Below, piece after piece: positions 10,953 to 60,776 of a stretch of 64,000 nt of DNA. The translations under genes and the position numbers were made by a program. The stretch is taken from the NCBI GenBank assembly GCA_965231155.1, contig OZ246418.1, positions 42,266 through 106,265 of the forward strand, given 5' to 3'. How positions within the stretch are numbered: the first letter of the stretch is position 1; each line of letters begins with the position of its first letter. The notes under the pieces are model-generated. The model was given only the letters and a program-made list of their open reading frames with translations, made no database searches and was not told the origin of the DNA. The stretch is from an uncultured Candidatus Saccharibacteria bacterium. Lineage in GTDB: Bacteria; Patescibacteriota; Minisyncoccia; UBA6257; 2-01-FULL-56-20.

Positions 10953-11215
10953 AGAATTTGGAAATCTTTATAATGCTTATGCTCAGCATTTTCGACTTCA
11001 ATCTTCTCGACTCGCGCCTCTCGCGGGCCTTTCTTACACCAAGCAATAAACAAATCCAACTGATCATCATCTCCTTCAACTTCGGCCAAAACTGAACCGT
11101 CTGGCATATTCTTTACATAACCAAACACGCCAATAACTTCTGCCATCTTCTTCGTTGTGTCCCTAAAGAAAACATCCTGGACCTTGCCGTATACTTTAAT
11201 AACGAGATGGTTCAT
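10949..11215 (-). CDS. acyP: Acylphosphatase
   Basis: VKVYGKVQDVFFRDTTKK ... GYVKNMPDGSVLAEVEGDDD: acylphosphatase signatures (V-x-G-x-V-Q-G-V-x-F-R and G-x-V-x-N). Confidence 0.8.
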   Translation of the reverse strand: MNHLVIKVYGKVQDVFFRDTTKKMAEVIGVFGYVKNMPDGSVLAEVEGDDDQLDLFIAWCKKGPREARVEKIEVENAEHKHYKDFQIL

Positions 11216-11220
11216 AGCTC

Positions 11221-34195: not shown

Positions 34196-34266
34196 TGCCG
34201 GGTCGTCTAATGGTAGGACAACGGACTCTGAATCCGTTTATCTTGGTTCGAATCCAGGCCCGGCAG
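34196..34266 (+). tRNA. tRNA-Gln (anticodon CTG)
   Basis: Manual cloverleaf: acceptor TGCCGGG/CCCGGCA, D-arm GTCT-AATGGTA-GGAC, anticodon arm ACGGA-CTCTGAA-TCCGT (anticodon CTG), T-arm CTTGG-TTCGAAT-CCAGG, discriminator G. Confidence 0.8.
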
Positions 34267-34360
34267 CAGTCTAGTTTAGTATCGATGGACCAGGAGCTGT
34301 AATAAATGACACCCAATAACCTGGACGGGTTATTAAGAAAACTATACTCTTGTTCTCATA

Positions 34361-38335: not shown

Positions 38336-38340
38336 ATTCA

Positions 38341-39627: not shown

Positions 39628-39669
39628 ACCCCAATGGATGACGCAGACCTCCGAGGAAGTCCAGGGCTC

Positions 39670-40344
39670 TCAAGAACCCTTTATCAGCCTCACTAATTCG
39701 GCAAACTGATTTGCTCCAATATTTCCTTCGCTAATATATGGCTTTTGAGGATTGCATGTGGCGTATGGAATCTTGGTTAAAAAAGGAACAGCTTCTCTCC
39801 AAATCCGTTCACCGCGCATAACGATGACGACTGGGTTTCTTTTTAAGGCATTCCCAACAAGATGCACCGAGTAACGCTGCGAGGGTAGTAGCTCTCCTTT
39901 CCATTGATACTTAACCGAGTGATAAGGAAAGTACTCAACGCAAAATATCTTTTTGGATAGCTCTTCCCACCCTACATTCACTGCACGCATGAGCGGCCCA
40001 ACCCTTCCTTTCCACCACTCATGCCCGGCTTGCGATACCTCAGCGAGTGCCGGGTTGAAGGGATAAAAAGGATAGTCATCAAACTGATGTAAGAAGTTTG
40101 ATCGAGCAATACTACTGAATAATTCACAGGCTTTTTCTGACCCAGTTTCTAATCCATATCCAGGATTGAGGTTAAGGAGAATAATTGGCGCGTCTGGATT
40201 ACCGACATAAGGAGATGGCAGCTGATCTAATAATATCTTCCCTTTGGGATCACGACATCGATCATTGAAGACTTCGATTGCCTTTTCATCTTCAGAAAAG
40301 ATAAATGGCGGAACTGTAGGCAGATGCGTCCAAGGATTTCTCAT
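39670..40344 (-). CDS. Hypothetical protein (weak uracil-DNA-glycosylase-superfamily-like N-terminal motif)
   Basis: PYVGNPDAPIILLNLNPGYG loosely resembles UDG family motif A. Otherwise ORFan. Confidence 0.35.
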   Translation of the reverse strand: MRNPWTHLPTVPPFIFSEDEKAIEVFNDRCRDPKGKILLDQLPSPYVGNPDAPIILLNLNPGYGLETGSEKACELFSSIARSNFLHQFDDYPFYPFNPALAEVSQAGHEWWKGRVGPLMRAVNVGWEELSKKIFCVEYFPYHSVKYQWKGELLPSQRYSVHLVGNALKRNPVVIVMRGERIWREAVPFLTKIPYATCNPQKPYISEGNIGANQFAELVRLIKGS

Positions 40345-40365
40345 AGCCCGAGGGGATAGGAGTCG

Positions 40366-41178
40366 CTACTCCCCAAATCCATTTTCGACCTTTTCAATAA
40401 ACCCTTCCTTTATAAATGTTTTTCCAGACTCTACCCCAATGCCACTTAGTTTATAGTGGAATTCTCCGAATCCAGGCACGCGATTACAATACTGTCTCTC
40501 CCCTTTTTTAAGATTGTAGAGAGAATGAGATGAAGCTCTTAGTGGGTCATCGAACTCAAAAAGAAAGTTATGAGTCATCAGCCTCCAAAGAGTCCCATTT
40601 TCACTAATACTGAATTCGATATTCTTAATATCCTCAGTCCCATCGTTAAAAAGTTCGAGCATCTTATAACTACGATTAAGACCAAATCTAACATCCACAC
40701 TCGGAATCCGATCGAATTGCAATCCCGCCGTAATAGCTGGAAAATCAGGGTGAATCTGGGAGTGTTTCATAAATAACGGAGCTAACACTTGAGCGGTTAA
40801 AGTCCCCGAGCTCCACTTGTACGAAGCGGCTTCTTCTCGAATAAGATCAATGACCTCAACCGGCAAATCATCTGGAGTGATGAACATCCACTCCTTAATT
40901 CGTAGGCCAATCTTTTTTTGACTTATAGCTTCAGCTAGCTTGCCGATATCTTCTCTTATTTTATTCCGATACTGAGAAAGTTCTTTACGCTCGGGATACA
41001 TCGGACAGTAAACTGCGCAAACAATCTGCTCATTTTTAATGTAACCGTCCACTCCCGAATCATGCCACTCTTTAAGACTTTGAAAGTTCTTTCCGTACTC
41101 AGCTCCTAAGACAGTATTTACCAATCTTTTAAACTCAATCGGATCTTCTATTTTCCGGATACGTGCGTATATATTCAT
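40366..41178 (-). CDS. Hypothetical protein with Mrr-cat-like N-terminal segment
   Basis: EFKRLVNTVLGAEYGKNF...HDSGVDGYI resembles restriction-endonuclease-like core (FE..l...G....DgGiDg). Remainder unknown. Confidence 0.35.
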   Translation of the reverse strand: MNIYARIRKIEDPIEFKRLVNTVLGAEYGKNFQSLKEWHDSGVDGYIKNEQIVCAVYCPMYPERKELSQYRNKIREDIGKLAEAISQKKIGLRIKEWMFITPDDLPVEVIDLIREEAASYKWSSGTLTAQVLAPLFMKHSQIHPDFPAITAGLQFDRIPSVDVRFGLNRSYKMLELFNDGTEDIKNIEFSISENGTLWRLMTHNFLFEFDDPLRASSHSLYNLKKGERQYCNRVPGFGEFHYKLSGIGVESGKTFIKEGFIEKVENGFGE

Positions 41179-41339
41179 AGGTTGGAGTGATTATATTCCT
41201 ACCCCATCTCAATATCCAGTTGAAAGACTGGACGAAGAGCTGTCGACAACTCCCCCTTCGCAAGGTCCCAGATCTAAGCTAGGAATGGACAAGAAAGGTC
41301 GAAAATCGGTACAATTCCTTTACAACTAAATAGCCGTAA

Positions 41340-41545
41340 GGCAGAGACCTAAACCCTCGGAGCAATCCGGCGGCATGGTCTACGAAGTCCCTTGGAAGAC
41401 ACTGAACCCCGCGTTCAGCGACTCTTCCAAGGGCCATACTGGGAAACTGGTATGGGGTCGTAAGACCTAGCTGATGCGGGGTTTAGTGTTTCTCCACCCC
41501 GCAAGACATAAACCACCTCTGTCGGGGTGAATACTATTTATTAAT
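41340..41545. ncRNA. Candidate structured non-coding RNA (nested hairpins, two GNRA tetraloops), strand undetermined
   Basis: Perfect 11-bp stem CCCTTGGAAGA...TCTTCCAAGGG enclosing inner 6-bp stem CTGAAC/GTTCAG (41389-41433); CCATACTGG-GAAA-CTGGTATGG (41434-41456); GGTC-GTAA-GACC; GCGGGGT...ACCCCGC. No ORF of at least 60 aa in a 370-bp gap between divergent genes. Confidence 0.3.
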
Positions 41546-41548
41546 TTT

Positions 41549-42229
41549 ATGCGTCTCATCTACGAAGAACCGCAGTCCATGGGAGGAGTTCTCAAAATCT
41601 ACGAGGACAAGATCGTCTACAAATCCGCCTATCTCAACCCAGAACAAACAATCCTTACCAAGCAAATTGTTTCCGTAAATCTTTCTGCTTTGCTACCTCA
41701 AGTGATTTTGGAAATGACGGGTAATCAGAAAGTTTCCATCACCACTAGCGACAAAGAAAAGATCCGAGAAACTATTCTGGATGTCATTAGTGGGACCGCC
41801 AAACCCCACCACGCAGAAGAAGTTTCTCCAGTCAGTGAACCAGAGCAACAGGAAGAAAAACCAGAACATGATGCTACCAAGAAGAAATGGGCGATATTTG
41901 GATTTGTCATTATCCTCATATGCGTAGTCGGAATATTCACAAGCGGGAGTAATTCATCACTAGTCTCTTCACTTCAAGGGAATAGATTTATGGCCGCCGC
42001 CGAAGCCGAGGGCTACGCCAAAGATCTACTTCGAAAAGAAGGATACTTAAATATAAAGCTTGGATCTTTCCCGACGATTAACGAGAATCCAGAAAAGACC
42101 ACATTCTATATCGAAAATACCTTCTCGGCAGAGATCTATGCCCGAGGTATACAAGGGACTTATGTAGCCATCGTTTCCTTCGCCCATGGTTCATATGAAG
42201 TAACAGATATCGCTTTCGAGAGAGACTAA
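41549..42229 (+). CDS. Single-pass membrane protein, unknown (N-terminal PH-like beta region, acidic linker, TM, C-terminal domain)
   Basis: TM segment WAIFGFVIILICVVGIF. No catalytic motif. Confidence 0.4.
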   Translation: MRLIYEEPQSMGGVLKIYEDKIVYKSAYLNPEQTILTKQIVSVNLSALLPQVILEMTGNQKVSITTSDKEKIRETILDVISGTAKPHHAEEVSPVSEPEQQEEKPEHDATKKKWAIFGFVIILICVVGIFTSGSNSSLVSSLQGNRFMAAAEAEGYAKDLLRKEGYLNIKLGSFPTINENPEKTTFYIENTFSAEIYARGIQGTYVAIVSFAHGSYEVTDIAFERD

Positions 42230-42233
42230 TTTC

Positions 42234-42620
42234 TTAAGAGATTGGAGGATCATCTCTATCCTTATCCAGTCGCGCCACATCTTCGAGAAGTTTCTTGAAC
42301 AATTCAGTTGCCTCTCTCATCTGCGAATTATTTTCCTCCCGGGATCTCATGTAGCGAGGATGGTTGTTATCGAGATAATACTTCGTCGCGGGAAAACTCC
42401 CTTTTTGAGCCATGACTAAGAGATTCCCTTCCATGAGATCGTTCTTATTATCCCTGCCACGTCCTAGGGCCTTGCCCATCTCCCTATCAAATCGAGAATC
42501 CCCATCTCTCCATCGGTAAATATGCGCTCGCGAGATACCGGCACGCTTCGAAGCAATACTGATATTGGCAGTTTCCTCTAGGACCTCCAGAAACTTCTTT
42601 TTATCCGCATGGCTTTTCAT
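42234..42620 (-). CDS. HTH protein resembling phage terminase small subunit
   Basis: SIASKRAGISRAHIYRWRDGD helix-turn-helix. Size, basic charge and position directly downstream of a ParB-methylase are typical of phage packaging modules. Confidence 0.4.
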   Translation of the reverse strand: MKSHADKKKFLEVLEETANISIASKRAGISRAHIYRWRDGDSRFDREMGKALGRGRDNKNDLMEGNLLVMAQKGSFPATKYYLDNNHPRYMRSREENNSQMREATELFKKLLEDVARLDKDRDDPPIS

Positions 42621-43956
42621 CTATTTTTACCGCTTTTTCTCCCGTTAGTTTTTCCCATCTTTTCTTGATCACCTCGGCGTAGATTGGCTGCTTCTCCATG
42701 AGATAGCATCGTCGCTTCATCCGGGTGGCGGCAATAAGCGTACTGCCACTTCCTCCAAAGGGTTCAACGATCAGATCGCCACGCTTGGTAAGGACTTTGA
42801 TGTAGGGAATAAGAATCTCCAATGGCTTTGTCCCGAATATAATCCCCTGTCCCGAGCTTTTCTCATCTGATGCCTTGTACCCTATGAAATCAGTTGGCTG
42901 GATCTTCTTCCCATGTTCGTAGCCTTCCCACTGGGGCTTCCCGGAGATGGCATAGAGGGCCGTTTCATATTCTTCTTGGAGGAGCTGATCTTCTGGTTCC
43001 ATGTGCATGTTCTCTTTGTCTTCTGAACTTCCAACCATAGCGATATCGTGCTTAGAGAAGAACTTGTACTTGGCCGCGAACCCTTGGGTACGGTTAGGTA
43101 GGTGCCACACGATCATGTTTTTGACCTTCCAGTACTTTTCCATCTCACCCCAGATGATCCGGAGATTCTTCCAATTCTCGTAGACAATGATGTGGAAGTT
43201 CGGCTTGGCAATCTCGGCGATGTTCGCCATCCAGAGTTCAGTGAAGTTGGATGGCAAGGTATCGGTGCCAATATATCTACGATCACGCTTCAAGCCAAAG
43301 CCTTCGATTGCTTCACCATGCTTCTTCTTGCCCTTCAGATAGTCGAGAATGTACGGTGGGTCAGTGAAACACATGTCGGCTCGTTCCTCCCCCATGAGCT
43401 TCAAGACGTCATCTCTCTCCATACTGTCCCCGCACATGAGACGCGAACCGCCAAGATCATAAACATCACCAAGCTTGGTCTCGATACTGTTGATATCCAA
43501 CTTCTCTAGTTCTTTCTGGATATCAAAGACTTCTGGCGTTTCTTCTTCCGGAAAGATGTCATCTAACTCTTCACTTGAGAAACCAATGTCCTTCAGTAAC
43601 GACTCATCGAACTCGGCCAACAAGGAGAGGTCGAACTCTCCGGTATTCTTGTTGAGCCGGATGATCAACTCTTCTTCTTTCTTCAGATCAGCAATGTGGA
43701 CATAAACGACGGGGATCTCCTCGAGGCCCATCGACTTCGCAACCTCGAAACGGAAGTTGCCGCCCACGATCACCCCCTCCCGACCCTCGGCCGAGTTGAC
43801 GATCAAAGGATCAACTAACCCATGCTGCTCGATACTTTCCCTCAACTGCGCCGTGGCCTCCTTAGACCAGACTCGTGGATTCCGTTCCGGATGTCGAAGG
43901 GACGACAAGGGAACATAACTAACCTGCAGCTTATCGCTGCTTTGTGTTGTGTACAT
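42601..43956 (-). CDS. ParB-like nuclease domain fused to beta-class N4/N6 DNA methyltransferase
   Basis: N-terminal ParB/Srx motif (GGNFRFEVAKSMG); MTase motif IV FTDPPY precedes motif I VEPFGGSGST (beta-class order). Confidence 0.8.
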   Translation of the reverse strand: MYTTQSSDKLQVSYVPLSSLRHPERNPRVWSKEATAQLRESIEQHGLVDPLIVNSAEGREGVIVGGNFRFEVAKSMGLEEIPVVYVHIADLKKEEELIIRLNKNTGEFDLSLLAEFDESLLKDIGFSSEELDDIFPEEETPEVFDIQKELEKLDINSIETKLGDVYDLGGSRLMCGDSMERDDVLKLMGEERADMCFTDPPYILDYLKGKKKHGEAIEGFGLKRDRRYIGTDTLPSNFTELWMANIAEIAKPNFHIIVYENWKNLRIIWGEMEKYWKVKNMIVWHLPNRTQGFAAKYKFFSKHDIAMVGSSEDKENMHMEPEDQLLQEEYETALYAISGKPQWEGYEHGKKIQPTDFIGYKASDEKSSGQGIIFGTKPLEILIPYIKVLTKRGDLIVEPFGGSGSTLIAATRMKRRCYLMEKQPIYAEVIKKRWEKLTGEKAVKIDEKPCG

Positions 43957-51301: not shown

Positions 51302-53287
51302 TTATAAAGTTTTCTGTCGCAGTAGCACAGCATTCACCGCCACAATTACTGTGGAGAGGGACATGAGTGCTGCTGCTAATGCTGGCTCAAGAAACAATCC
51401 CCACGTCGCGAATACTCCAGCAGCTAACGGAATGGCAATCACGTTGTACCCCGTAGCCCAGAAAAGATTCTGGATCATCTTCCGATAGGTCAGACGAGAA
51501 AGTTTGATGATCTTCACAATGTCTCTCGGATCATTTCTGACGAGAATTATTCCCGCTGATTCAATGGCCACATTCGTTCCTGCGCCAATTGCTATCCCCA
51601 AGTCTGCTTGTGTGAGCGCCGGAGCGTCATTGATCCCATCCCCCACCATAGCGACCTTTTTGCCCTGTTCTTGAAGCAGTTTCACTTTTTCCGATTTATC
51701 TTTCGGCATAACGCGGGCAAAGTAGTCATCAAGGTTCAATTCTTTGGCCACCCAGCGAGCGACATCCTCAGCATCTCCCGTAATCATCATCACCTTTACT
51801 CCTGTGCTCTGAAGGTCACGGACCGCATCCCGGGATTCTTCGCGAATAATATCGGCGAGAGCGATAGCACCAACAAGCGCATCATTTTGGATAACATACA
51901 CAACAGTTTTTCCTTCTTCGGAAAGCGTGGCGACTTTCCGCTTGAACTCCTCTCCTCCTGCAATATGCTTACCTAGAATCAACGACTCGCTCCCCACCAC
52001 TACTTTATTTCCGCCGACTGTCGCGGCCGATCCCTGTCCGGGTAAACGAGTAAATTCTTCGATTCGCGGCAAAGAAATGTTTCTCTTCTCGGCTTCGCGA
52101 ATGATTGACTTGGCGATGGGATGCTCCGACTGGCTATCAACGGCGGCGGCCAAAGCGAGAACTTCTTCCTCGCTCTTGCTTTCTGCGGGAATGATATTAG
52201 AAACTCCGAACTCACCGCGAGTGAGCGTTCCTGTCTTATCGAATAGAACCGTATCAATATTTCTGGCCGCTTCGAGCGCCAAACGTTGCTTTACCAAAAA
52301 TCCATTCTGAGCAGCTTTCGTTGTAGATATAGAAGCCACTAACGGAATGGCCAAACCAAGTGCATGGGGACAAGCGATGACCAAAACCGCGACCATCCGC
52401 TCGATCGCAAACGAAGGCTCGGCAAAGAAAAGCCAAGCAATTAAAGTAGCTAAGCCGGTCGCGATAGCAATGATCGTGAGGTAATATGCGGCTCTATCTG
52501 AAAGTATCTGCAAGCGAGACTTCGAGGCTTGAGCTTCGGAAACAAGCCGCATCACTCCAGCTAAAAATGTATGCTCACCAATTTTATTTATTTTAACGGT
52601 GAGGGAGCCATCACCATTTACTGTTCCAGCGATTACCTCATCTCCTTCTTTTTTAGAGACTGGCTTTGATTCTCCGGTCGCTACTGACTCGTTTACTTCG
52701 GAGGTTCCTTCTAGGACCATACCATCAGCAGGAATTGTGCTTCCAGGTCGGACCAAAACCATATCTCCTTCCTTGAGTTGATCGAGAGGAATCACCACTG
52801 TCTTACCATCACGAATAACCTCGGCTTGATCCGGCAGAAGTTTAGAAAGCTCCTTCAAAGCACCTTGAGCACCGGAGACTGCTCGCATTTCGATCCAGTG
52901 TCCAAGAAGCATGATCGTAATCAGAGTTGCTAGTTCCCAGAAAAGAGTATGCGATTCTCCTCTTAAGAAAATGTAAAGACTATAGATATATGCTACCGAA
53001 ATCGCGAGAGAAATCAGGGTCATCATTCCCGGCAGTTTGGCCTTGATTTCGTTCTGGGCGCTTTTTATAAATACCCACCCTCCATACAAGAAGATGATTG
53101 AAGAAAGTATCGGAGAAATAAACTGCCACCCAGGAAACAAAGGTGGTTGCCAGTTAAAAAGCATCGGGACGATATCCGAGTAAAGTAATACCGGAATCGT
53201 TAATACAAAAGATACGAGGAATTTCTTTTTGAAGGCTTCCGTATGATGCCCAGCGTGCTTATTGAACTTATGTATATTGTGGTCCAT
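51302..53287 (-). CDS. copB: Copper-translocating P1B-type ATPase (CopB-like, His-rich N-terminus, no HMA domain)
   Basis: CPH motif in TM6 (IACPHALGLA), DKTGTLT phosphorylation site, GDGINDAP hinge. N-terminal HKFNKHAGHH. Confidence 0.9.
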   Translation of the reverse strand: MDHNIHKFNKHAGHHTEAFKKKFLVSFVLTIPVLLYSDIVPMLFNWQPPLFPGWQFISPILSSIIFLYGGWVFIKSAQNEIKAKLPGMMTLISLAISVAYIYSLYIFLRGESHTLFWELATLITIMLLGHWIEMRAVSGAQGALKELSKLLPDQAEVIRDGKTVVIPLDQLKEGDMVLVRPGSTIPADGMVLEGTSEVNESVATGESKPVSKKEGDEVIAGTVNGDGSLTVKINKIGEHTFLAGVMRLVSEAQASKSRLQILSDRAAYYLTIIAIATGLATLIAWLFFAEPSFAIERMVAVLVIACPHALGLAIPLVASISTTKAAQNGFLVKQRLALEAARNIDTVLFDKTGTLTRGEFGVSNIIPAESKSEEEVLALAAAVDSQSEHPIAKSIIREAEKRNISLPRIEEFTRLPGQGSAATVGGNKVVVGSESLILGKHIAGGEEFKRKVATLSEEGKTVVYVIQNDALVGAIALADIIREESRDAVRDLQSTGVKVMMITGDAEDVARWVAKELNLDDYFARVMPKDKSEKVKLLQEQGKKVAMVGDGINDAPALTQADLGIAIGAGTNVAIESAGIILVRNDPRDIVKIIKLSRLTYRKMIQNLFWATGYNVIAIPLAAGVFATWGLFLEPALAAALMSLSTVIVAVNAVLLRQKTL

Positions 53288-53299
53288 AGATCTAAAAAT

Positions 53300-53569
53300 T
53301 TATTTCTTCTTTGATCGTTTATAGACGGTCATAATCTCCTTCATAGCCTGTGCCTCCTTACCACTCTTCATCTGCTCAACCACATGAGTCGTGAGGTGAT
53401 TTTCTAATAAAAGATCTTCGACACTCGATAAGGCCTCTTTGATCGCCGAAGACTGAGTGATGATGTCTATGCAATATTTCTCCTCATCGACCATGCGCTC
53501 CAATCCCCGTACCTGTCCCTCGATCCGATGCAACCGAGAAGTTAATTTATTTTTAATGTCTTTTCTCAT
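53300..53569 (-). CDS. csoR: CsoR/RcnR-family metal-sensing repressor
   Basis: RLHRIEGQVRGLERMVDEEKYCIDIITQSSAIKEA: CsoR signature with Cys (C-x-D-I) and the His/Cys ligand set. Confidence 0.8.
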   Translation of the reverse strand: MRKDIKNKLTSRLHRIEGQVRGLERMVDEEKYCIDIITQSSAIKEALSSVEDLLLENHLTTHVVEQMKSGKEAQAMKEIMTVYKRSKKK

Positions 53570-53574
53570 AACCC

Positions 53575-53599
53575 CATTATACCCCCCTAGGGTATAATG
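53575..53599. promoter_or_regulatory. 25-bp palindrome CATTATACCCCCCTAGGGTATAATG: CsoR-box-like operator (ATACCC-N-GGGTAT) with symmetric -10 TATAAT hexamers on both strands (divergent promoter)
   Basis: Perfect 10-bp arms around a CCCTAGGG core, seen directly. Sits 6 nt upstream of the csoR start and about 180 nt upstream of the first cassette gene on the + strand. Confidence 0.5.
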
Positions 53600-53616
53600 T
53601 CAACATCCTGTTAAAA

Positions 53617-53756
53617 CTGTCTCATTTGTCTCATTTAGCCCTAGACCGAGACGGGTCAGTTATTACCCTATTCTGACCCCCAAAGAACCCTTATACTGAT
53701 TGAAAGTTCCTGGTACTAGACCGAGGAACACAGCCACCTTGAGATAGGTTCCTCGG
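53617..53756 (+). repeat. Leader repeat copy 1 (modules W gtctcatttgtctcattt, X gaccgagacgggtcag, Z tatactgattgaaagttcctggtactagaccgaggaacacag...ccaccttgagataggtt) upstream of gene 53777
   Basis: Roughly 140 nt, highly similar to 59288-59470 upstream of unrelated gene 59515. Ends in hairpin CCTCGG-gtc-CGAGG that pairs with the GAGGAG RBS. Confidence 0.5.
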
Positions 53757-53776
53757 GTCCGAGGAGCATTAAAGAT

Positions 53777-54439
53777 ATGTTTGAATGGCTAAAAGATAAA
53801 ACAATCGGAAAGTTCAGGCGCTGGAAGTCTCGACTATTTCTACGTATTATCGGAGAACTACATAAAGAACGCATGCGCGAACGCTTAAAAGACGTCCCCG
53901 CAGAACTGAAAGAGTATCATGCCAGAGAGACCATAATGAATGGAAATAGCACCGCACTGCATAATCTTTATAGAAAGGCCAAAGATAGCAAAAAGTTTCA
54001 GGAGGCATTTTTGTATTTTTTCTATGAGTTTGAAATAAATCTTAAGCATATGATCATGTCCGAGATGATGGTTGCAAACAGCATGGAGGCACTCAAACGT
54101 GACGAGAATAATCATTTCCCCATATATTCGGAAGATGAGGTATTAAAAATTCAAAAAATTGGACATATTTCCACTCTGATAGAAAAATTTTCCTCCGTTC
54201 ATGGTGATGAGATTGAAGATAGCTTAAAGGCCATCAACGACGCAAGAAATTTCATCATTCACAACATGCTAAAGGAGGAAATGAACGAAGGGCAGATTGA
54301 AAAATCATTTGAATACTTCTTCGTAGCCACCAATGGTCACATCAATAAAGCTTATAGATTTTTTGATAAAACGCTCGAAGAAAGACCCGAAAAAATACTG
54401 GCTACAGTGAAAAAGATTGCAGTAGAGAAGATACGCTAG
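53777..54439 (+). CDS. Hypothetical alpha-helical protein with HEPN-type R-N-x3-H motif
   Basis: C-terminal KAINDARNFIIHNML (RNxxxH). Mostly helical composition. Cassette 1 of the array. Confidence 0.4.
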   Translation: MFEWLKDKTIGKFRRWKSRLFLRIIGELHKERMRERLKDVPAELKEYHARETIMNGNSTALHNLYRKAKDSKKFQEAFLYFFYEFEINLKHMIMSEMMVANSMEALKRDENNHFPIYSEDEVLKIQKIGHISTLIEKFSSVHGDEIEDSLKAINDARNFIIHNMLKEEMNEGQIEKSFEYFFVATNGHINKAYRFFDKTLEERPEKILATVKKIAVEKIR

Positions 54440-54463
54440 AATTCCGTCCGAGGAGCATCAGAA

Positions 54464-54823
54464 ATGGAAGATTCAATATCATTGCAACTCGCAAAACAGT
54501 ATCTCGGAAAAGAGGTTGAGGTGACTATGGACCGACCGCTTGGAACTAAACATCCCAAGCATGGCTTTATATATGAAGCGAACTACGGTTTTATTGAAGG
54601 AGTAGAAGCTCCTGACGGAGAAGATCTGGACGCCTACTACCTGGGAGTGCAAACACCTCTTCAACAAGCAAAAGGAGTTTGTATTGCAATAGCCCATCGC
54701 AGAGACAATGACGACGACAAACTGATTGTCGTTCCCAAAGGAACTAAATTAACAGATGAGCAGATTATGCTTGCAATCCATTTCCAAGAGCAGTGGTTTG
54801 ATACAGGAATCGTTAGAAAATGA
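54464..54823 (+). CDS. Small protein with degenerate inorganic-pyrophosphatase-like acidic motif
   Basis: APDGEDLDAYY resembles family I PPase D-x-D-x-x-D signature in degenerate form. 119 aa. Confidence 0.3.
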   Translation: MEDSISLQLAKQYLGKEVEVTMDRPLGTKHPKHGFIYEANYGFIEGVEAPDGEDLDAYYLGVQTPLQQAKGVCIAIAHRRDNDDDKLIVVPKGTKLTDEQIMLAIHFQEQWFDTGIVRK

Positions 54824-54868
54824 CCCGTCCGAGGAGGGTCAAAAGGTAAGATAAAGAAACTTAAGAAA

Positions 54869-54914
54869 AGCCTCTGGTGGTCTCACTTTTTAAATATCCG
54901 AGACCGAGGAGGCC
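54869..54914 (+). repeat. Y-module hairpin copy 1 (CCTCTGGTGGTCTC-actttttaaatatcc-GAGACCGAGGAGG) pairing RBS with upstream CCTC
   Basis: One of three near-identical copies (also at about 55605-55650 and 56735-56773), each 10-20 nt upstream of a different start codon. Confidence 0.5.
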
Positions 54915-54922
54915 AGACGGCC

Positions 54923-55558
54923 ATGGGCCTTGAACAACGTAATAACGGAAGCGATATACTTAAGCTAATGGAACCAGAAATTAAACTTGTAGTCGAAGAA
55001 TCATTAACAAAAGTAAAGCGCATTTTCAACGTGGAAGATGTTTCAGCTCAAGTCGAAGAAGATCCCTCCCAGGTGATTCCTGAAACCGGCGCAGGCGGCT
55101 CCACTCCCGACTCACATACCATCTGCGTCTATTACGACTCCAACAATAAAAATCTTAGGAAAAATTTTCGGGAGGAAATCAAGAGCACGGTAACGCATGA
55201 ATTCCACCATGCAATCAGGAATAGGACCTACAACTGGAAGGAAGATACACTGCTTGGCGCGATAATCAGCGAAGGACTTGCCGATCACTTTGATATAGAA
55301 GTAAACAGTGGAAAACCAAAACCTTGGTCTGTTGCCCTAACTGATACTGAGCTAGAAAGAGTTGAAGAAATTGCTACCCCTGAATTGAATAGTCGCGAAT
55401 ACAACCACGCGGATTGGTTCTTCGGTTCGAAAAAAAGAAATATTCCCAGATGGGCAGGGTATGCGATGGGTTTTAAACTTGTGGGCGAATACCTGAAAAA
55501 GACCGGCAAGAAAGCTTCTGCGTTAGTTGCCGAACCTGCGAGATCTTTCTTTGACTAG
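54923..55558 (+). CDS. Putative zincin-like metallopeptidase (HExxH)
   Basis: THEFHHAIRN HExxH motif with downstream Glu/Asp-rich segment. Roughly DUF2268-like arrangement (inference). Confidence 0.35.
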   Translation: MGLEQRNNGSDILKLMEPEIKLVVEESLTKVKRIFNVEDVSAQVEEDPSQVIPETGAGGSTPDSHTICVYYDSNNKNLRKNFREEIKSTVTHEFHHAIRNRTYNWKEDTLLGAIISEGLADHFDIEVNSGKPKPWSVALTDTELERVEEIATPELNSREYNHADWFFGSKKRNIPRWAGYAMGFKLVGEYLKKTGKKASALVAEPARSFFD

Positions 55559-55604
55559 TGCTCGAGATGGATTGGAACGGTAGCATAAAGAAACCTCAGA
55601 AAAA

Positions 55605-55650
55605 CCTCTGGTGGTCTCACTTTTAAAATATCCGAGATCGAGGAGGCCAG
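55605..55650 (+). repeat. Y-module hairpin copy 2
   Basis: cctctggtggtctcacttttaaaatatccgagatcgaggaggccag; followed by an X-like gagaccgagacggatca segment. Confidence 0.5.
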
Positions 55651-55727
55651 CACGAGTCAGCGCGGTATCGTATGAGACCGAGACGGATCATATTTTGCTA
55701 ATTCTTGAAAAAGATTAGAATGGGAGC

Positions 55728-56156
55728 ATGTCTCAGGATTTGCCACAAAAAGAATTGATAATCGCCGTAGTGGAAAAAGACAGCGCTTTATTAATGCGAA
55801 AAAAGCCAGCTGGATCTCCTCCGTATGTAGAAACCTGGTATTCGCTGGGATGCGATCGAATTCCCGGCCAGGATGATCCAACCACTATAAAGAATTATTT
55901 GAAATCAGAAGTTGGCATCGACGTTGAAGTTGATCCTAAATCGATTCCCTTTGGAACTGAAATTAAAGAAGATCACGATGGCATTACCAAGAATTTTATC
56001 TACGTTAACCTCCTTTGTCATTATCTCGGCGGCACACCCAAGATACCCAAAGGCGCTGAAAAAATTGAATGGCTACCAAAAAATAGTTTGGGATCATTTG
56101 ATATCGTACCACCCTCAATAAATCTTTTTAAATCTCTTGGGTATCTAAATTCTTAA
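55728..56156 (+). CDS. Hypothetical protein, weak NUDIX-like layout
   Basis: ELIIAVVEKDSALLMRKK...G(x5)...SEVGI weakly resembles a Nudix fold start. Low confidence. Confidence 0.25.
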   Translation: MSQDLPQKELIIAVVEKDSALLMRKKPAGSPPYVETWYSLGCDRIPGQDDPTTIKNYLKSEVGIDVEVDPKSIPFGTEIKEDHDGITKNFIYVNLLCHYLGGTPKIPKGAEKIEWLPKNSLGSFDIVPPSINLFKSLGYLNS

Positions 56157-56157
56157 A

Positions 56158-56688
56158 ATGCGCAAAAGAAATCTTGGGAAGCTTGAACAATACGATTATA
56201 TCGATGACGAATTTATTGGAGAAACCAGCCCTGATTATATCGAAGCTATCGGCCTATTTGTGCTTGAATTTAGCGCTCTGGAACATGAAATAAATTTACG
56301 AATTGCAGATCAAATTAACGATAGAGCACACTTTCAAGGATATCAGGTCATTGAACTTTTATCCTCAAAAGATAAGATTGATTTATTTTCGAGATGGGTT
56401 GGCGCTTATATGGTCATGGGCAATAGTAAAAAGAAAACTCGATTTAATCGCCTCGTTCAAAAGCTTCGAGAATTAAATGCATTTCGAAATAAAGTTCTGC
56501 ATGCCAATTGGATGTCTGCGGCTAAGGATGGCACAGTTAGAACTCGTATCGTCATCAACGAGGGAGAAGGCGCTGTTCGCTTCGAGAGAACAAAAATCAC
56601 TCCAACATTAATTAATAAAAAATCGGAAGAATGCTCCAGGGCGAGAGATGAGCTCGATGAGATTATGGAGGGAGCTTATAACAGCTAG
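56158..56688 (+). CDS. Hypothetical protein with HEPN-type R-N-x3-H motif
   Basis: LRELNAFRNKVLHANWM (RNxxxH), very similar in local context to the motif in gene 53777 (N-[DA]-[AF]-R-N-x-[IV]-[IL]-H-[NA]-N). Start codon overlaps previous stop (TAAAATG). Confidence 0.4.
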   Translation: MRKRNLGKLEQYDYIDDEFIGETSPDYIEAIGLFVLEFSALEHEINLRIADQINDRAHFQGYQVIELLSSKDKIDLFSRWVGAYMVMGNSKKKTRFNRLVQKLRELNAFRNKVLHANWMSAAKDGTVRTRIVINEGEGAVRFERTKITPTLINKKSEECSRARDELDEIMEGAYNS

Positions 56689-56734
56689 ACCGAGACGGGT
56701 CAGTTACTCCCCTACTACGACCCTCAGAAAACCC

Positions 56735-56773
56735 TTTGGTGGTCTCACTTTTTAAATATCCGAGACCGAGGAG
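56735..56773 (+). repeat. Y-module hairpin copy 3, preceded by X-module copy (56686-56736)
   Basis: tagaccgagacgggtcagttactcccc...aaccctttggtggtctcactttttaaatatccgagaccgaggag. Confidence 0.5.
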
Positions 56774-56877
56774 TCCCATTATAAAAAACGGCGTATTCAG
56801 GTTTTGAATGACTAGACTTAATGTCATTTATATCTCATAATTTCCCCAGCTTTTCCAAAACCTTAGGGAGGACACTC

Positions 56878-58188
56878 ATGGCACAAGAAAACACTGCGGT
56901 TCAAGACGCTGGAGCTTCCCCAATGGAAGCGGATCTTCGAAACATTCCCATTGATCTCATCGATCCAGATCCTCGTCAACCCCGCACCGACTTCGACGAA
57001 GAAGCCCTAAATGCGCTGGCCGAGAACATAGAGGCAGTAGGGGGCTTACTCCAAACCGTTGTAGTTCGTCCATCACCTACTGATCCGGGTCGCTTCATGC
57101 TGATCGGTGGCGAACGGCGATACCGTGCTTCGAAAAAAGCCGGGTCAAGCACTCTTCCTTGCATCGTCCGGCAGGGCGATAGGATTCCCTTCGTCATGTC
57201 TATGGTTGAGAACATGCTCCGGGCAAGTCTCAACCCCATCGAAGAGGCGCGCGCCTTTAGACGATGCCACGACGAGTATGGGATGTCGTATCACGAGATT
57301 GACCGAACTTTCAAATTCAAACGAAAGAAATCGGAAAACGTGGTGCGCCTTCTGGAACTGCCGGAAGAAATTCAGCAAATGGTGGAGAACGGCACATTGC
57401 CGCCAAGCTATGCGCTGGGTTTACATCAGTACGCTGAAACCCGAGACGTCGTCGCCATGGCCTACGCCCTTGCCGATGGACGTGATCCCGGGGTTGTCTT
57501 GCCAAAACGGAAGACAAAATATGTTAAAGGTGAGCCGAAACCAACGGAGTTTCGAGAGTATTTCCTGTTAGCCAAACAGAGTGATCGTGTGAGAAGACTC
57601 GCCGATGCACTTCTGGCACACGACACAGGGATACAGCGTCGGGCGTGGATGAAGAACTCACGCACGAGCAGAACGAACCTTCAACTCAATCTTCGTGCCA
57701 TGGCAATTGCCTTCGGGCAAATGACTGCTCGACTCGAAGATCTCGAGAAACCATCAACAGTAACGTTCTCGCCTGCGTCAGAAGCCAAGTCGAGCCCTCT
57801 TACTCGGCCGACAACTCCGCCCAAGAAACCGACGCAGGAAAAATGGTTACCTCTCCCGGACGAAAGCACCTTCGAAAAAATCGCTGGAGTAATTCGATTG
57901 GTCTCCTTTGATCGCAGGGGAGGTAGACTTGCCTACCTGAGCGAAGAACGTCTCAAGCGGAAGGGATGCTCACCGGAACTCCTCCTCGAAGCCTTACGAG
58001 TTTTTCGAGATCAGTGGAATCGAGAACCGGCCACAGGGAATACTCAGGTAGAACGAGAATTCCTGGGGTTTCTCAAGGGAACTCGCGAAAATTCCGGGTG
58101 TAACCAGTTTTTCAGTTTTATCGGAAAACTCAGAGATCTAGATACCTCCGAAGATCCAGTTCCTCTGAGCCCCCTATCAGACGACTAA
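56878..58188 (+). CDS. ParB/Srx-domain protein with long Pro/Thr/Arg-rich C-terminal extension (GC-rich gene)
   Basis: LIDPDPRQPR...LLQTVVVRP...LIGGERRYRASKKAG: ParB N-terminal domain with GERRxRA motif. RBS AGGGAGG 7 nt upstream of ATG at 56878. Codon usage distinctly GC-rich. Confidence 0.65.
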   Translation: MAQENTAVQDAGASPMEADLRNIPIDLIDPDPRQPRTDFDEEALNALAENIEAVGGLLQTVVVRPSPTDPGRFMLIGGERRYRASKKAGSSTLPCIVRQGDRIPFVMSMVENMLRASLNPIEEARAFRRCHDEYGMSYHEIDRTFKFKRKKSENVVRLLELPEEIQQMVENGTLPPSYALGLHQYAETRDVVAMAYALADGRDPGVVLPKRKTKYVKGEPKPTEFREYFLLAKQSDRVRRLADALLAHDTGIQRRAWMKNSRTSRTNLQLNLRAMAIAFGQMTARLEDLEKPSTVTFSPASEAKSSPLTRPTTPPKKPTQEKWLPLPDESTFEKIAGVIRLVSFDRRGGRLAYLSEERLKRKGCSPELLLEALRVFRDQWNREPATGNTQVEREFLGFLKGTRENSGCNQFFSFIGKLRDLDTSEDPVPLSPLSDD

Positions 58189-58212
58189 AACCCTCATCGT
58201 GAGGGTTTTTTA
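58188..58212. terminator. Rho-independent terminator shared by convergent ParB-like and sigma54-activator genes
   Basis: AAAACCCTCA-tcg-TGAGGGTTTT followed by TTATT. Begins at the ParB-like stop codon. Confidence 0.8.
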
Positions 58213-58240
58213 TTACTGAAAATAAAAATCCGTCATAAGG

Positions 58241-59206
58241 TTATGACGGAAGTTGAACTGGTGAACCGCTACTTTGATACTCACTCAAACGGTTATAAAG
58301 AGTCTTCAAAGAAATTCCCAGGCTTGCTGATGCCGCTTGCTTATTGCCTTTATGGTATTCAAGCGCTGCCAAGATGTGTTCTCTCTCGATATCAACCAGC
58401 GGGCGCGGGGTATGAGATGGTGCAAGTTGATTCTTAACCGGAGAGCCTCCTCGAACACGATCCGGAATATGCTCAAGACCAACTTCCCTTTCAGAAAGTA
58501 CGGTTGCCCGCTCCATAACGTTCAGCAGCTCCCGAACATTGCCGGGCCAGCTGTAACGCAGGAGATGAGTCAAGGCATCCTTGGCGATAGTCTTCCGATA
58601 GATCTCGAGTCTGTTCCTGATCAAGACTTCAATATCTTCTGGACGATCGCGCAACGCAGGCATGGTCAGATCGAGAACGCTCAGACGATAAAAGAGATCT
58701 TCTCGGAACGTTTGTTCTCGGACCATTTTCCACAGATCCCGATTTGTTGCTGCAATAATACGAACATCGGTCTTCTGCGCCTGATCGCTGCCCAAGGCGA
58801 AAATCTCACCATTATCTAGGAAGCGAAGTAGCTTTGATTGAAGCGACAAGGACAACTCCCCTATCTCTTCCAACAAAACCGTACCCCCATTAGCAGTCAT
58901 CAATACTCCTGGCCTATTTTCTAACGCTCCGGTGAACGACCCTCGAGTATGACCAAAAGCCATGGAATGCCAGAGATCTTCTTGGTGGATATATGTTCCA
59001 TCAACCACGGCCAGTGATTTGTGCTCTTGCCCTCGAGGACTTTTTTCGTGGATAAACTGAGCCAGTGCGGACTTGCCTGTGCCCGTTTCTCCGCCAATCA
59101 GTATGACACTACCAGTTTGAGCAAAACGTTCTGCTCGTGCCAAAGCTTCCTGCATGAGACGACTCGCCGCAACCCATTTCATATGAACTCCCCTCTCATC
59201 GAACAA
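58241..59206 (-). CDS. Sigma-54-dependent transcriptional activator, AAA+ core plus Fis-type HTH, no sensory/receiver domain (PspF-like)
   Basis: GETGTGKSALAQ Walker A, GSFTGAL (GAFTGA equivalent), GTVLLEEIGEL Walker B, RIIAATN, FREDLFYRL, WPGNVREL, C-terminal ASLGISLKTLYNRL HTH. Probable true start at internal MKWVAASR (59182). Confidence 0.85.
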   Translation of the reverse strand: MFDERGVHMKWVAASRLMQEALARAERFAQTGSVILIGGETGTGKSALAQFIHEKSPRGQEHKSLAVVDGTYIHQEDLWHSMAFGHTRGSFTGALENRPGVLMTANGGTVLLEEIGELSLSLQSKLLRFLDNGEIFALGSDQAQKTDVRIIAATNRDLWKMVREQTFREDLFYRLSVLDLTMPALRDRPEDIEVLIRNRLEIYRKTIAKDALTHLLRYSWPGNVRELLNVMERATVLSEREVGLEHIPDRVRGGSPVKNQLAPSHTPRPLVDIEREHILAALEYHKGNKQAASASLGISLKTLYNRLSEYQSSGSPVQLPS

Positions 59207-59287
59207 CTGCCTCTATCTAAGAGGAAATACTTTCTCCTGTCAAACACAAAGAGTCACTCAGTGTCGATATCGTTGCAAGTCTCAAAA

Positions 59288-59470
59288 ACCGTCTCGTTTG
59301 TCTCATTTTTACCCGACCAAGGTGGGTCAGCAACTCCCCTGTTCCTACCCAAAAAACCCTTACACTGATTGAAAGTTCCCAGTACTAGACCAAGGAACAC
59401 AGTAACTGAGCGAGAGCGAAGGAGTACTGAGGTTAGTAGGCCGAATGTGCCACCTTGAGATAGGTTTCCA
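59288..59470 (+). repeat. Leader repeat copy 2 (W-X-Z modules with a ~45-nt insertion) upstream of gene 59515
   Basis: gtctcgtttgtctcattttt...gggtcag...aacccttacactgattgaaagttcccagtactagaccaaggaacacag...ccaccttgagataggtt; compare 53617-53756. Confidence 0.5.
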
Positions 59471-59514
59471 GTGCTTCTATTCGGGAACGGGCTCTTCTAA
59501 ACTATAATGGAAGA

Positions 59515-59784
59515 ATGAAAGAAACTGCCAAATCATTCCCTGATGCAGAAATGAACCCCCGTCAAAAAGATTCTCAGGGGTTAGACTTCTGGGCTACCAG
59601 CCTACTCGAAAACAACCTTATTAGTAAAAGGGAATATGACGAGTTCATCGAAAAAAATAATTCGAAGGAAAAAATGATGGAAGAGAGAAGGTTGCCCCAG
59701 CTCAAACACTATGGAGAATTTACTTCGACCGAACAAATAAGAAAAAAGATTAGACCGCAAGAGGAAGAAAAATTTATTATATGA
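59515..59784 (+). CDS. Hypothetical small charged protein
   Basis: 89-aa Lys/Glu-rich ORF behind leader repeat copy 2. Confidence 0.3.
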   Translation: MKETAKSFPDAEMNPRQKDSQGLDFWATSLLENNLISKREYDEFIEKNNSKEKMMEERRLPQLKHYGEFTSTEQIRKKIRPQEEEKFII

Positions 59785-59895
59785 TGCACCTCAAAGAAAA
59801 ATGGAGAGATCAAAAGACTAATCGACGCAAACCTAGATGAAGTTTGCGACTTCGCAGACAAACTTCCTGGTGGATTTGAATATTGGGATGTCGAG

Positions 59896-60246
59896 GTGAA
59901 AGAATTCGTCAAAAGTATTGCAGCTGGCACGATCATTGTCTCCCCAAACGGCAGGACAATAATTGAAACGTGGCATGGTCCACATTATCTGAATACTACA
60001 AATGTTCCAAAGTATCATGCCGAGTTTGATCCCGATCAATTCCATATGCACTTTAATTGGAAAGGGCCAGAAGAAGCTCGTGATCTGCCCGAGATGCAGA
60101 ACTATGCCTTAAAAGCATTGCGCTATTTTTTCCGGCATCTAAAACCAAGAGAGAACGAACCTATATACGCAGAGTATGGAGTGAAAGCTAGTGGGGAGAT
60201 TTATTTTATTGAAGCAAACGACTCCTCCTTGTTAACTGGAAAATAA
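59896..60246 (+). CDS. Hypothetical protein
   Basis: 116-aa ORF. No motif. Confidence 0.3.
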   Translation: MKEFVKSIAAGTIIVSPNGRTIIETWHGPHYLNTTNVPKYHAEFDPDQFHMHFNWKGPEEARDLPEMQNYALKALRYFFRHLKPRENEPIYAEYGVKASGEIYFIEANDSSLLTGK

Positions 60247-60287
60247 AACTGAACGGCCAAGATGGGGCAACTTCTCTCCCTAATCTC

Positions 60288-60776
60288 CTAACCCCGACGG
60301 GCTGCGTCTATGGTAGCGACGTCAATCTTCTTCATTGTCATCATCGCTTTAAATGCACGTTCTGTTGCTGCGCCACCAACAGCGAGAGCTTCAATAAGCG
60401 TTCGTGGAGTAATCTGCCAGGATACTCCCCAACGATCCTTACACCACCCACACGCACTCTCCTGTCCACCGTTTCCAACAATTGCATTCCAGTAGCGATC
60501 TGTTTCCTCCTGATTATCAGTAGCGATCTGGAAAGAAAATGCTTCACTTTGTTTAAACGCTGGTCCGCCGTTCAGACCAATACAGGGAATTCCACAGACC
60601 GTGAAATCCACCGTGAGCGCGTCGCCTTTCTTGCCATCCGGGAAATCACTGGGTGCATAAAAAACAGCGTTCACCTTACTATCAGGAAAAGTCGCCGCGT
60701 AAAAGTTTGCCGCTGCTTCCGCATCCTTATCAAACCAGAGACAGATCGTGTTTTTAGGTATTTGATTCATATGCAA
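60288..60776 (-). CDS. VOC-superfamily (PhnB/3-demethylubiquinone-9 3-methyltransferase-like glyoxalase fold) protein
   Basis: ICLWFDKDAEAAANFY...GDALTVDFTV...RWGVSWQI pattern typical of PhnB-like VOC proteins. Confidence 0.65.
   Translation of the reverse strand: MHMNQIPKNTICLWFDKDAEAAANFYAATFPDSKVNAVFYAPSDFPDGKKGDALTVDFTVCGIPCIGLNGGPAFKQSEAFSFQIATDNQEETDRYWNAIVGNGGQESACGWCKDRWGVSWQITPRTLIEALAVGGAATERAFKAMMTMKKIDVATIDAARRG

Follow-up and report, generated by a model that had tools for sequence, protein, structure and literature searches.

A possible family of BOX-like mosaic repeats punctuating a variable gene island in a Patescibacteria genome

Within a 64-kb window (the whole stretch of DNA analysed here) of contig OZ246418.1, from an uncultured Candidatus Saccharibacteria bacterium (assembly GCA_965231155.1), an element of ~140 nt occurs upstream of two genes and had been proposed, in a sequence-only reading, to be a transferable regulatory leader. 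We tentatively read its two copies, E1 (53613-53750, plus strand) and E5 (59285-59466, plus strand), as one permutation, A-B-D-F, of a family of mosaic repeats of the BOX, BIME and NIME kind. The element looks like BOX- or REP-type mosaic repeats and not like a metabolite-sensing riboswitch; it is one permutation of a modular family and not a self-contained leader, and the modules shared by its copies recur in other junctions and in other genomes. The repeats sit between the genes of a variable, cassette-like island in a small (~0.8 Mb) genome of the Patescibacteria, or candidate phyla radiation (CPR). The earlier cis-regulatory reading is partly supported: the element is reused and constrained, and a cis-acting RNA role is plausible since sense-strand hairpins are predicted to occlude ribosome-binding sites, but no sign of a discrete riboswitch, attenuator or small RNA (sRNA) leader was found.

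Anatomy of the full copies and of the other island repeats

The existence of two copies of ~140 nt on the plus strand is confirmed. The 25-mer AACCCTTAYACTGATTGAAAGTTCC occurs exactly twice in the 64 kb (0.00 expected from 100 shuffles), and a 55-nt core is 91% identical between E1 and E5 (window repeat scan, family D5), which share 80% identity overall. An nhmmer profile finds E1 with 149 bits and E5, whose order is A-B-D-insertion-F, in two pieces (59286-59404 and 59449-59466). The gap that had been noticed before ccaccttgagataggtt in E5 proves to be a discrete insertion of 47 nt, placed between GGAACACAG and CCACCTTGAGATAGGTT and homologous to a 48-nt tandem unit of a related genome (L012, described below). 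Other features ascribed to both copies are present with small departures: the direct-repeat block begins in E5 with GTCTCGTTT, one mismatch from GTCTCATTT, and the GGGTCAG hairpin is imperfect in E5, which lacks one base of its 3' arm. In the GTTCC...GGAAC stem, where differences between the copies had been called pair-preserving or loop-located, all three lie in the loop and are compatible with the stem, but are uninformative about it. The GC content of the elements is 45-48%, against 44% for the window.

Four full copies are compared here, namely E1, E5 and two from a related genome, Ea and Eb. Module A is identical at 19-23 of 24 positions in all pairings and module D at 32-39 of 41, the latter with a 15-nt run that is invariant in 4/4 copies; module B is the least conserved and has lost its 5' arm in Eb. 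The end modules are inverted repeats, AAACTGTCTCA and TGAGATAGGTT matching at 9 of 11 positions, and the 5' part of module A (53617-53624) pairs with module F at a predicted probability of 0.78-0.97. Module F also occurs in Ea and at L012:8727-8744. The hairpin unit that joins the second repeat of module A to the start of module B corresponds, by sequence comparison, to the core of a further module, C, which is found elsewhere in the island (Table 1). Like BOX, BIME and NIME elements, the repeats are made of separable modules that vary in permutation and copy number, and their terminal modules are inverted repeats that can pair. Internal modules have been gained, lost or tandemly multiplied, as seen in the 47-nt insertion of E5, a 102-nt insertion of Eb and the 48-nt tandem of L012.

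The repeats are confined to a 6.6-kb island (53.6-60.2 kb) with five repeat-bearing gene junctions, E1 to E5, all on the plus strand, and they are absent from the remaining 57 kb of the window according to a repeat scan and motif counts. GTCTCAYTT and AGACCGAG occur six times each and AGACCRAGGA four times, all on the plus strand of the island and none elsewhere on either strand of the 64-kb window. Every multi-base junction of the same-strand gene array is filled by repeats, which begin on or just past the preceding stop codon and in some cases end in the Shine-Dalgarno sequence of the next gene. The recurring unit consists of GTCTCAYTT, a spacer and AGACCGAG-RNGG-NYCAG, with a GUCUC/GAGAC hairpin; it builds the A/B region of E1 as well as module C, and the AGACCGAG cores that bracket each unit are spaced by ~75 nt. 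The description of a two-copy element holds for the full copies, but the same island also contains three copies of the 75-nt module C (...CCTCTGGTGGTCTCACTTTTTAAATATCCGAGACCGAGGAGGCCAG; family D4) and a second copy of module B, which in E1 reads CTAGACCGAGACGGGTCAG...AACCCTT and recurs at 56685-56736. Module B opens with the motif that closes module C, with identity at 15 of 19 positions. A block similar to the hairpin that opens junction E2 is also present at L004:6444-6459 of the related genome. The analysis took in 64 kb of a genome of ~808 kb, plus ~6 kb to the right of the window, and nhmmer searches over ~150 kb of sequence, with one profile each for A-F, module C and the 48-nt unit, found no further copies; all copies in this sequence are clustered.

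Table 1. Window coordinates of repeat modules, hairpins and associated genes
Feature	Position	Strand	Remarks
Module A of E1, AAAACTGTCTCATTTGTCTCATTT	53613..53636	+	Two 9-nt direct repeats
GUCUC...GAGAC hairpin	53628..53652	+	Module A repeat 2 plus module B start; in the minimum-free-energy structure
Module B hairpin, GGGTCAG-N13-CTGACCC	53653..53679	+	Repeat family D6
Module D core, ATACTGATTGAAAGTTCC..GTACTAGACCGAGGAACACAG	53693..53733	+	Contains GTTCC/GGAAC stem
Module F, CCACCTTGAGATAGGTT	53734..53750	+	3' partner of module A; imperfect terminal inverted repeat or closing helix
E1-specific hairpin, GUUCCUCG/CGAGGAGC	53748..53767	+	Spans GAGGAG ribosome-binding site 53761-53766 of the gene starting at 53777
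First cargo gene, 220 aa	53777..54439	+	Small family with invariant R-x4-H; HEPN-like
Hairpin TGACCC-N10-GGGTCA, start of junction E2	54821..54841	+	Overlaps TGA stop codon of gene 54464-54823
Module C copy 1	54842..54916	+	GGTCTC-N15-GAGACC hairpin, then GAGGAGG, the ribosome-binding site of gene 54923
Module C copy 2 (junction E3)	55576..55650	+	GAGGAGG with no start codon after it
Junction E3 tail	55651..55700	+	GGCCAGCACGAGTCAGCGC, common to L005:4544-4562, then truncated module B start GAGACCGAGACGGATCAT
Module B copy 2 (junction E4)	56685..56736	+	Family D6, 85%; starts on TAG stop codon of gene 56158-56688
Module C copy 3 (junction E4)	56704..56778	+	Upstream of the ParB-like gene's own promoter
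Long ParB-like protein	56878..58188	+	ParB_N plus HTH; convergent pair with bEBP; context only
bEBP (sigma-54 enhancer-binding protein)	58241..59182	-	RtcR/PspF type without CARF; divergent from E5; context only
47-nt extra internal module of E5, GAGCGAGAGCGAAGGAGTACTGA...	59403..59449	+	Model M, 44 bits

Copies and modules in related genomes

An exact-pattern scan over one genome per species, with separate scans of metagenome, viral, phage and plasmid collections, matched one other genome, a metagenome-assembled genome (MAG) of a Patescibacteria member labelled 'Saccharibacteria' (locus L004). The metagenome scan recovered the same organism from Hainich groundwater (L005, L006); a phage or plasmid origin was set aside, as viral contigs, phage records and plasmid records held no match to the element. 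The MAG carries both Ea and Eb. Ea (L004:1441-1576) is 87.6% identical to E1, against 78.5% for the neighbouring DUF218 gene and 71.5% for the adjacent cop (copper-resistance) cluster, and on this comparison with flanking coding DNA (71.5-78.5%) the repeats are under constraint. Identity between copies is lower within a genome (E1-E5, 80%) than between genomes (E1-Ea, 88%). Eb (L004:5584-5793) precedes a small, unrelated gene, and the 5' half of its module B is missing. Its 102-nt insertion, which contains a UUCG-capped hairpin, falls precisely on the B/D border; like the 47-nt insertion of E5, it respects module borders. The cargo genes differ wholly between the genomes that share the repeats, and the cassette array lies on the other side of the DUF218-cop block in the window than in L004 and L006.

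A constant position upstream of a co-oriented gene, as expected of a structured cis-regulatory RNA, holds for E1, E5 and Eb and fails for Ea: flanked by convergent genes, with the stop codon of the one on the opposite strand 20 nt away, Ea has nothing to lead. A 470-nt spacer (L005:4318-4789) likewise holds GTCACTTTTGTCACTTTTT, an E2-like block and a block common with junction E3, all of them antisense to both neighbouring genes. The sequence-only reading had taken further copies that lack conserved structure and lie at random positions relative to genes as the mark of a plain dispersed repeat, and in Ea and this spacer such a picture is partly realised. The module-dense spacer precedes a methylmalonyl-CoA mutase gene (L005:4318-6406; Pfam E 1.6e-215), which is unexpected in a Patescibacteria genome.

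A more distant relative, L012, encodes a sigma-54 enhancer-binding protein (bEBP) and a ParB-like protein that are 69% and 59% identical, respectively, to those of the window. Module F, with a unit before it, is found there between tRNA-Gln and DUF218, close behind the tRNA gene; a D-like block precedes a DUF817 gene, and a two-copy tandem of the 48-nt unit related to the E5 insertion lies upstream of the ParB-like gene. The two tandem units (L012:7866-7964, minus strand) have the form GAGCGA-AGGAGTACTGA-ACACAG-CAGTGCGAACGTGC, and a third copy adjoins tRNA-Gln(TTG). In each 48-nt unit, GUACUG and CAGUGC make a hairpin, and the internal loop beside it contains AAGGAG.

A search anchored on homologues (contigs with the bEBP, the ParB-like protein or DUF218) found modules on L012 only, and contigs of other lineages that share DUF218 had none of these modules. 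The family appears to be small, lineage-restricted, clustered and mosaic, since neither those contigs nor the ~150 kb of the profile search contained further copies. Five public read-set assemblies were all identical and showed no strain polymorphism in the island; DNA of the organism occurs in assemblies of the read sets SRR14271365, -66, -72 and -73. In most short-read assemblies the contigs end at module C, while one assembly is interrupted within E5 and another within the bEBP gene (L001-L003, L007-L011, L015-L016). The breaks at module C would arise because its 36-nt exact repeat exceeds the k-mer length of the assemblers, assumed to be 31, and such variable islands would therefore be systematically fragmented in MAGs.

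Predicted RNA structure and the competing readings

A stem, CCTCGG-gtc-CGAGG, had been noted to sequester the GAGGAG ribosome-binding site. It is present in E1 but in E1 only, and is not part of the conserved element: E5 has a different and weaker hairpin (UCUUCU/GGAAGA), and the expression platform differs among E1, E5 and Eb. In E1, module C and E5 alike, a pyrimidine-rich stretch is predicted to pair with the Shine-Dalgarno sequence. According to a crude survey of 30 window genes, the ribosome-binding site of gene 54923, which belongs to module C, has a predicted unpaired probability of 0.005 (second lowest of 30), and that of gene 53777 follows with 0.007 (third lowest). This predicted pairing resembles ROSE and fourU thermometers and translational operators, unlike which the repeats show no Rfam match and no U-rich or ROSE signature, and their occluding hairpin is not conserved in the repeat.

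Several weaker observations, none of them decisive, would favour a role of the sense-strand RNA. Both large insertions, of 47 nt in E5 and 102 nt in Eb, are located where predicted helices meet. Among transition-type changes in the stems of all hairpins, ~9 read as G·U on the plus strand and 3 as A·C when counted by hand (one-sided binomial p ~0.07). The RNAalifold closing helix includes one compensatory C-G to U-A change in Eb, and in Ea a G-C pair of the module B stem has become A-U. Pairing of the end modules, A with F, has a probability of 0.5-0.98 in E1 and E5 and comprises five pairs at ~0.7 in Ea, and it is Ea, the copy with no downstream gene, that carries most broken pairs.

Other results of the structural analysis weigh against a family of RNA-acting mosaic repeats. 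Over the four full copies, the paired fraction of cells is 87.2%, compared with 86.6% in shuffles, with one pair changed on both sides; this covariation is equalled by 235-316 of 500 shuffles, a comparison limited by having four sequences only, and RNAalifold assigns -0.62 kcal/mol to covariation. For Eb no closing helix is predicted. Hairpin z-scores are modest (+0.9 to -2.3 over six short regions), and the E5 region as a whole folds no better than shuffles (z +0.9). The best-conserved modules, A, D and F, are mostly unpaired primary sequence, and the hairpin-bearing module B is the least conserved; the invariant primary sequence of A and D suits protein or DNA recognition no less well than RNA structure. 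To this are added the small number of full copies available for covariation (four), the lack of visible target-site duplications in elements that are not AT-rich, and the clustering of all known copies, unlike the dispersed BOX or REP. In junctions E3 and E4 the ribosome-binding site of module C has no start codon after it, and occlusion can therefore not be the sole role of this module. Lastly, no promoter for an island operon was identified in a scan of 53200-60400.

These data make it highly improbable that the element is a discrete cis-regulatory RNA (a riboswitch, an attenuator, or an sRNA- or protein-binding leader) that moved between genes. Such a leader would account for the three of four full copies that stand directly upstream of a co-oriented gene, and it would fit the folding of the E1 region, which is better than that of shuffled sequence (z -3.4), the placement of insertions at predicted helix junctions and the predicted occlusion of a ribosome-binding site by the E1 hairpin. 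However, in Rfam 15 the window yielded only LOOT and one tRNA at the gathering threshold, with nothing on the element, and even at an E-value of up to 10 the region 53400-59700 gave only two chance matches to small nucleolar RNAs. Covariation over the four sequences is not significant; module B can be dispensed with, Eb having lost half of it; conservation does not extend to the expression platform; Ea lacks a gene on which to act; the leaders contain no terminator/antiterminator pair; and the downstream genes have no pathway in common that could hint at a ligand. A leader peptide in module D (TTG AAA GTT ...) was rejected as well: the open reading frame has no Shine-Dalgarno sequence in three of the four copies (E1, E5 and Ea), and the TTG-initiated peptide is poorly conserved, with many non-synonymous changes in Eb by hand translation.

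The peak of conservation in primary sequence and not in stems would be expected of a DNA-level control region, in which the invariant blocks serve as binding sites for the island bEBP or for the ParB-like CTPase (KorB-like, as on plasmid RK2). Candidate sites would be the two 9-bp repeats GTCTCATTT and a ~40-bp core, ATACTGATTGAAAGTTC...TAGACC, ~75 bp apart, and together they would make up a small regulon of cassette promoters. Modules A and D stand 72-75 bp apart in three copies and roughly twice as far in Eb; E5 lies in the divergent region adjoining the bEBP gene; similar motifs (GTCTCAT, TTGTCACTTTTTGG and GATACTG) occur in the bEBP-patatin intergenic region of L012; and the pair of bEBP and ParB-like genes is conserved between two genomes. 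We nevertheless consider this reading unlikely. No sigma-54 site of the form GG-N10-GC, with GG at -24 and GC at -12, was found in the four full copies at a score of at least 5, even though this cut-off is low, and its window-wide number is close to chance (23 found, 21.6 expected). No sigma-70-like promoter with -35 and -10 boxes at 16-18 nt spacing occurs on the plus strand inside E1 or E5 (scan 53200-60400), and no parS-like palindrome was found for the ParB-like protein. The MAG that carries Ea and Eb has neither the bEBP nor the ParB pair in the 26 kb examined, a protein-DNA complex of fixed geometry would be disturbed by the 47- and 102-nt insertions between the supposed sites, and palindromes bound by protein would not be expected to favour G·U over A·C in their stems. 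Other promoter candidates were discarded: perfect TGGCAC boxes exist on the minus strand of E5 and in L012 at the wrong spacing to any GC; TATACT in module D, taken as a -10 box, has no conserved -35 partner, and the Eb insertion splits off the upstream sequence; and consensus sequences for extracytoplasmic function (ECF) sigma factors, sigma-32 and sigma-28 gave no fit by eye.

The compact layout of repeat, gene or genes and repeat in a single orientation also evokes recombination or mobility sites, for instance cassette junctions (attC, or Neisseria NIME/dRS3-like) or a miniature inverted-repeat transposable element (MITE) with 11-bp terminal inverted repeats; the position beside genes would then be a by-product of cassette shuffling and not of regulation. 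This would agree with elements that start on stop codons, with AGACCGAG cores ~75 nt apart bracketing each unit, with completely different cargo in relatives that share the repeats, and with an array found on different sides of the DUF218-cop block in the window and in L004/L006. The ends are inverted repeats (9/11), and GTTCCTGG-TACTAGA-CCGAGGAAC resembles a recombinase core with inverted arms around a 7-bp spacer. As in attC arrays and clusters of attC sites lacking integron integrases (CALIN), unrelated and mostly apparently promoterless genes in one orientation are separated by imperfectly palindromic spacers of 60-140 nt, which begin at a stop codon and have variable centres and conserved ends. 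Unlike in attC, however, the core sites RYYYAAC and GTTRRRY are absent from the element ends on direct reading, the conserved AGACCGAG cores are direct and not inverted repeats, and it is the sense strand that appears to fold. The window contains no tyrosine recombinase or IntI, its only recombinase being a large serine recombinase (38341-39627) 14 kb away. E1, E5, Ea and Eb have no visible target-site duplications and are not rich in AT, which excludes a typical MITE; the lower identity of E1-E5 (80%) than of E1-Ea (88%) argues against recent transposition, and the five read-set assemblies are uniform. On balance, recombination sites are an explanation that we deem improbable, to the same extent as DNA-level control. 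A tRNA-derived attachment (att) site was considered in addition: L005:4529-4578 resembles a tRNA-Gln flank, and 19 nt of it recur in junction E3. Its att origin is unproven because the segment up to the tRNA holds the methylmalonyl-CoA mutase and no integrase.

A bolder version, which we regard as very unlikely, would see in the island an undescribed gene-cassette system of the Patescibacteria, integrase-independent or distantly served. The AGACCGAG cores and GUCUC/GAGAC hairpins would be the recombination substrate by which defence-type cargo (HEPN-like, PDC-S07-like, patatin) is swapped, and the junction elements might at the same time act as a translational gate that silences newly acquired, potentially toxic genes.

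It is also quite unlikely that the repeats are neutral leftovers, that is, old intergenic or translation-initiation segments that were duplicated and gene-converted in a recombination hotspot and have no function. The decaying mosaic look of E3 and E4, with orphan ribosome-binding sites and a truncated module B, would suit such an origin, and so would the motif with which module B begins and module C ends (15/19). Against it stand the stronger conservation of the repeats between genomes than of neighbouring coding DNA, and the fact that modules are recognisable in L012 although the shared proteins are only 59-69% identical.

For the mosaic-repeat reading, which we find possible and prefer, the closest model is offered by BOX elements, which are organised as boxA-(boxB)n-boxC, with paired ends and independently folding internal modules, and have effects on co-transcribed genes (PMC3049150). 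Similar to BOX of Streptococcus pneumoniae and BOX-type elements of S. suis, the window repeats are composite, modular and intergenic (BOX, ~70-600 bp), with modules A and F paired and with B, D and the 47/48-nt unit varying. They have no sequence homology to BOX, however, and whereas BOX is present in >100 dispersed copies with terminal inverted repeats and target-site duplications, the repeats here are few, lie in one island, are nearly all sense and show no duplication. REP and BIME of enterobacteria and NIME and Correia elements of Neisseria are mosaics of short palindromic units in intergenic or intercistronic positions, where they stabilise mRNA or function as attenuators or sites of processing; NIMEs are found in clusters between silent cassettes and are used in recombination. 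The window repeats differ from all of these in the lack of homology, in including a Shine-Dalgarno sequence in their units, and in that no RAYT-type transposase or matching insertion sequence is visible in the window.

We speculate that the mosaic repeats are transcribed together with the island genes and act in cis as RNA stem-loops that would hide ribosome-binding sites and/or stabilise or segment the mRNA, and that they might have spread by duplication and recombination between junctions. If so, this would be the first description of BOX/BIME-like mosaic repeats in a bacterium of the candidate phyla radiation; no new riboswitch class is added. CPR genomes are tiny and have very little non-coding DNA, so that retained repeats are likely to matter. 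Those described here mark the junctions of a fast-changing island with defence-like genes and are kept more strictly than the neighbouring genes. As mosaic repeats they would provide a practical marker for variable loci in uncultured organisms, as well as a case in which to test whether hiding of ribosome-binding sites serves as a general-purpose brake for accessory genes.

Cargo genes and neighbouring features

The claim that the downstream genes are unrelated is borne out, since the island proteins showed no mutual similarity. The family of the first, 220-aa protein comprises 12 clusters at 50% identity and gives sub-threshold matches to HEPN_Apea, HEPN_Cthe2314 and DUF3644 (Pfam). Further cargo includes a pyrophosphatase-like protein, a DUF2268 protein, proteins of 89 and 116 aa, a 142-aa protein (55728-56156) with a weak match to the defence candidate PDC-S07, and a 176-aa protein (56158-56688) that carries RNKVLH. 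Judged from these similarities, the island looks defence- or toxin-like.

At the right of the array, E5 lies between the divergent bEBP gene and gene 59515. The bEBP has a GSFTGA loop and matches PADLOC RtcR_PspF2 (E 3e-88), and the ParB-like protein is unusually long (436-443 aa) and has a GERRxR motif. Their convergent pair (56878-59182; L012:5377-7752) was found in two genomes only, and no sigma-54 promoter was found near it. The ParB-like gene has a promoter of its own (TAGACT-17-CATAAT, 56813-56841), which is situated downstream of the E4 repeats and conserved in L012.

The left neighbour of the island is csoR-copA. This operon has a perfect consensus promoter, TTGACA-16-TATAAT, on the minus strand at 53570-53603, around the palindrome ATACCCCCCTAGGGTAT. 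The same palindrome yields a mirror TATAAT on the plus strand (53593-53598), with no -35 box, facing E1. Because this box points into E1, the element and the island genes could be weakly transcribed from it under copper/CsoR control.

Farther to the left, tRNA-Gln(CTG) directly precedes a probable integrated element (34196-43956), whose genes encode a 1324-aa TPR protein with a PIN-TPR-GreABC domain, the large serine recombinase (minus strand), a ParB_N-methyltransferase fusion (42601-43956) and several proteins of unknown function; no att repeat of the 3' end of this tRNA was found in the 64-kb window. An intergenic gap within this island downstream of tRNA-Gln contains a LOOT RNA motif (RF03000; 41346-41468, plus strand), a full-length Rfam match with 77.5 bits against a gathering threshold of 46.4. 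Finally, three tandem paralogous units at 7948-12975, ~1.8-2.0 kb apart and 62-77% identical over blocks of 124-173 nt (families D1-D3), appear from their sequence to be a local gene-family expansion.

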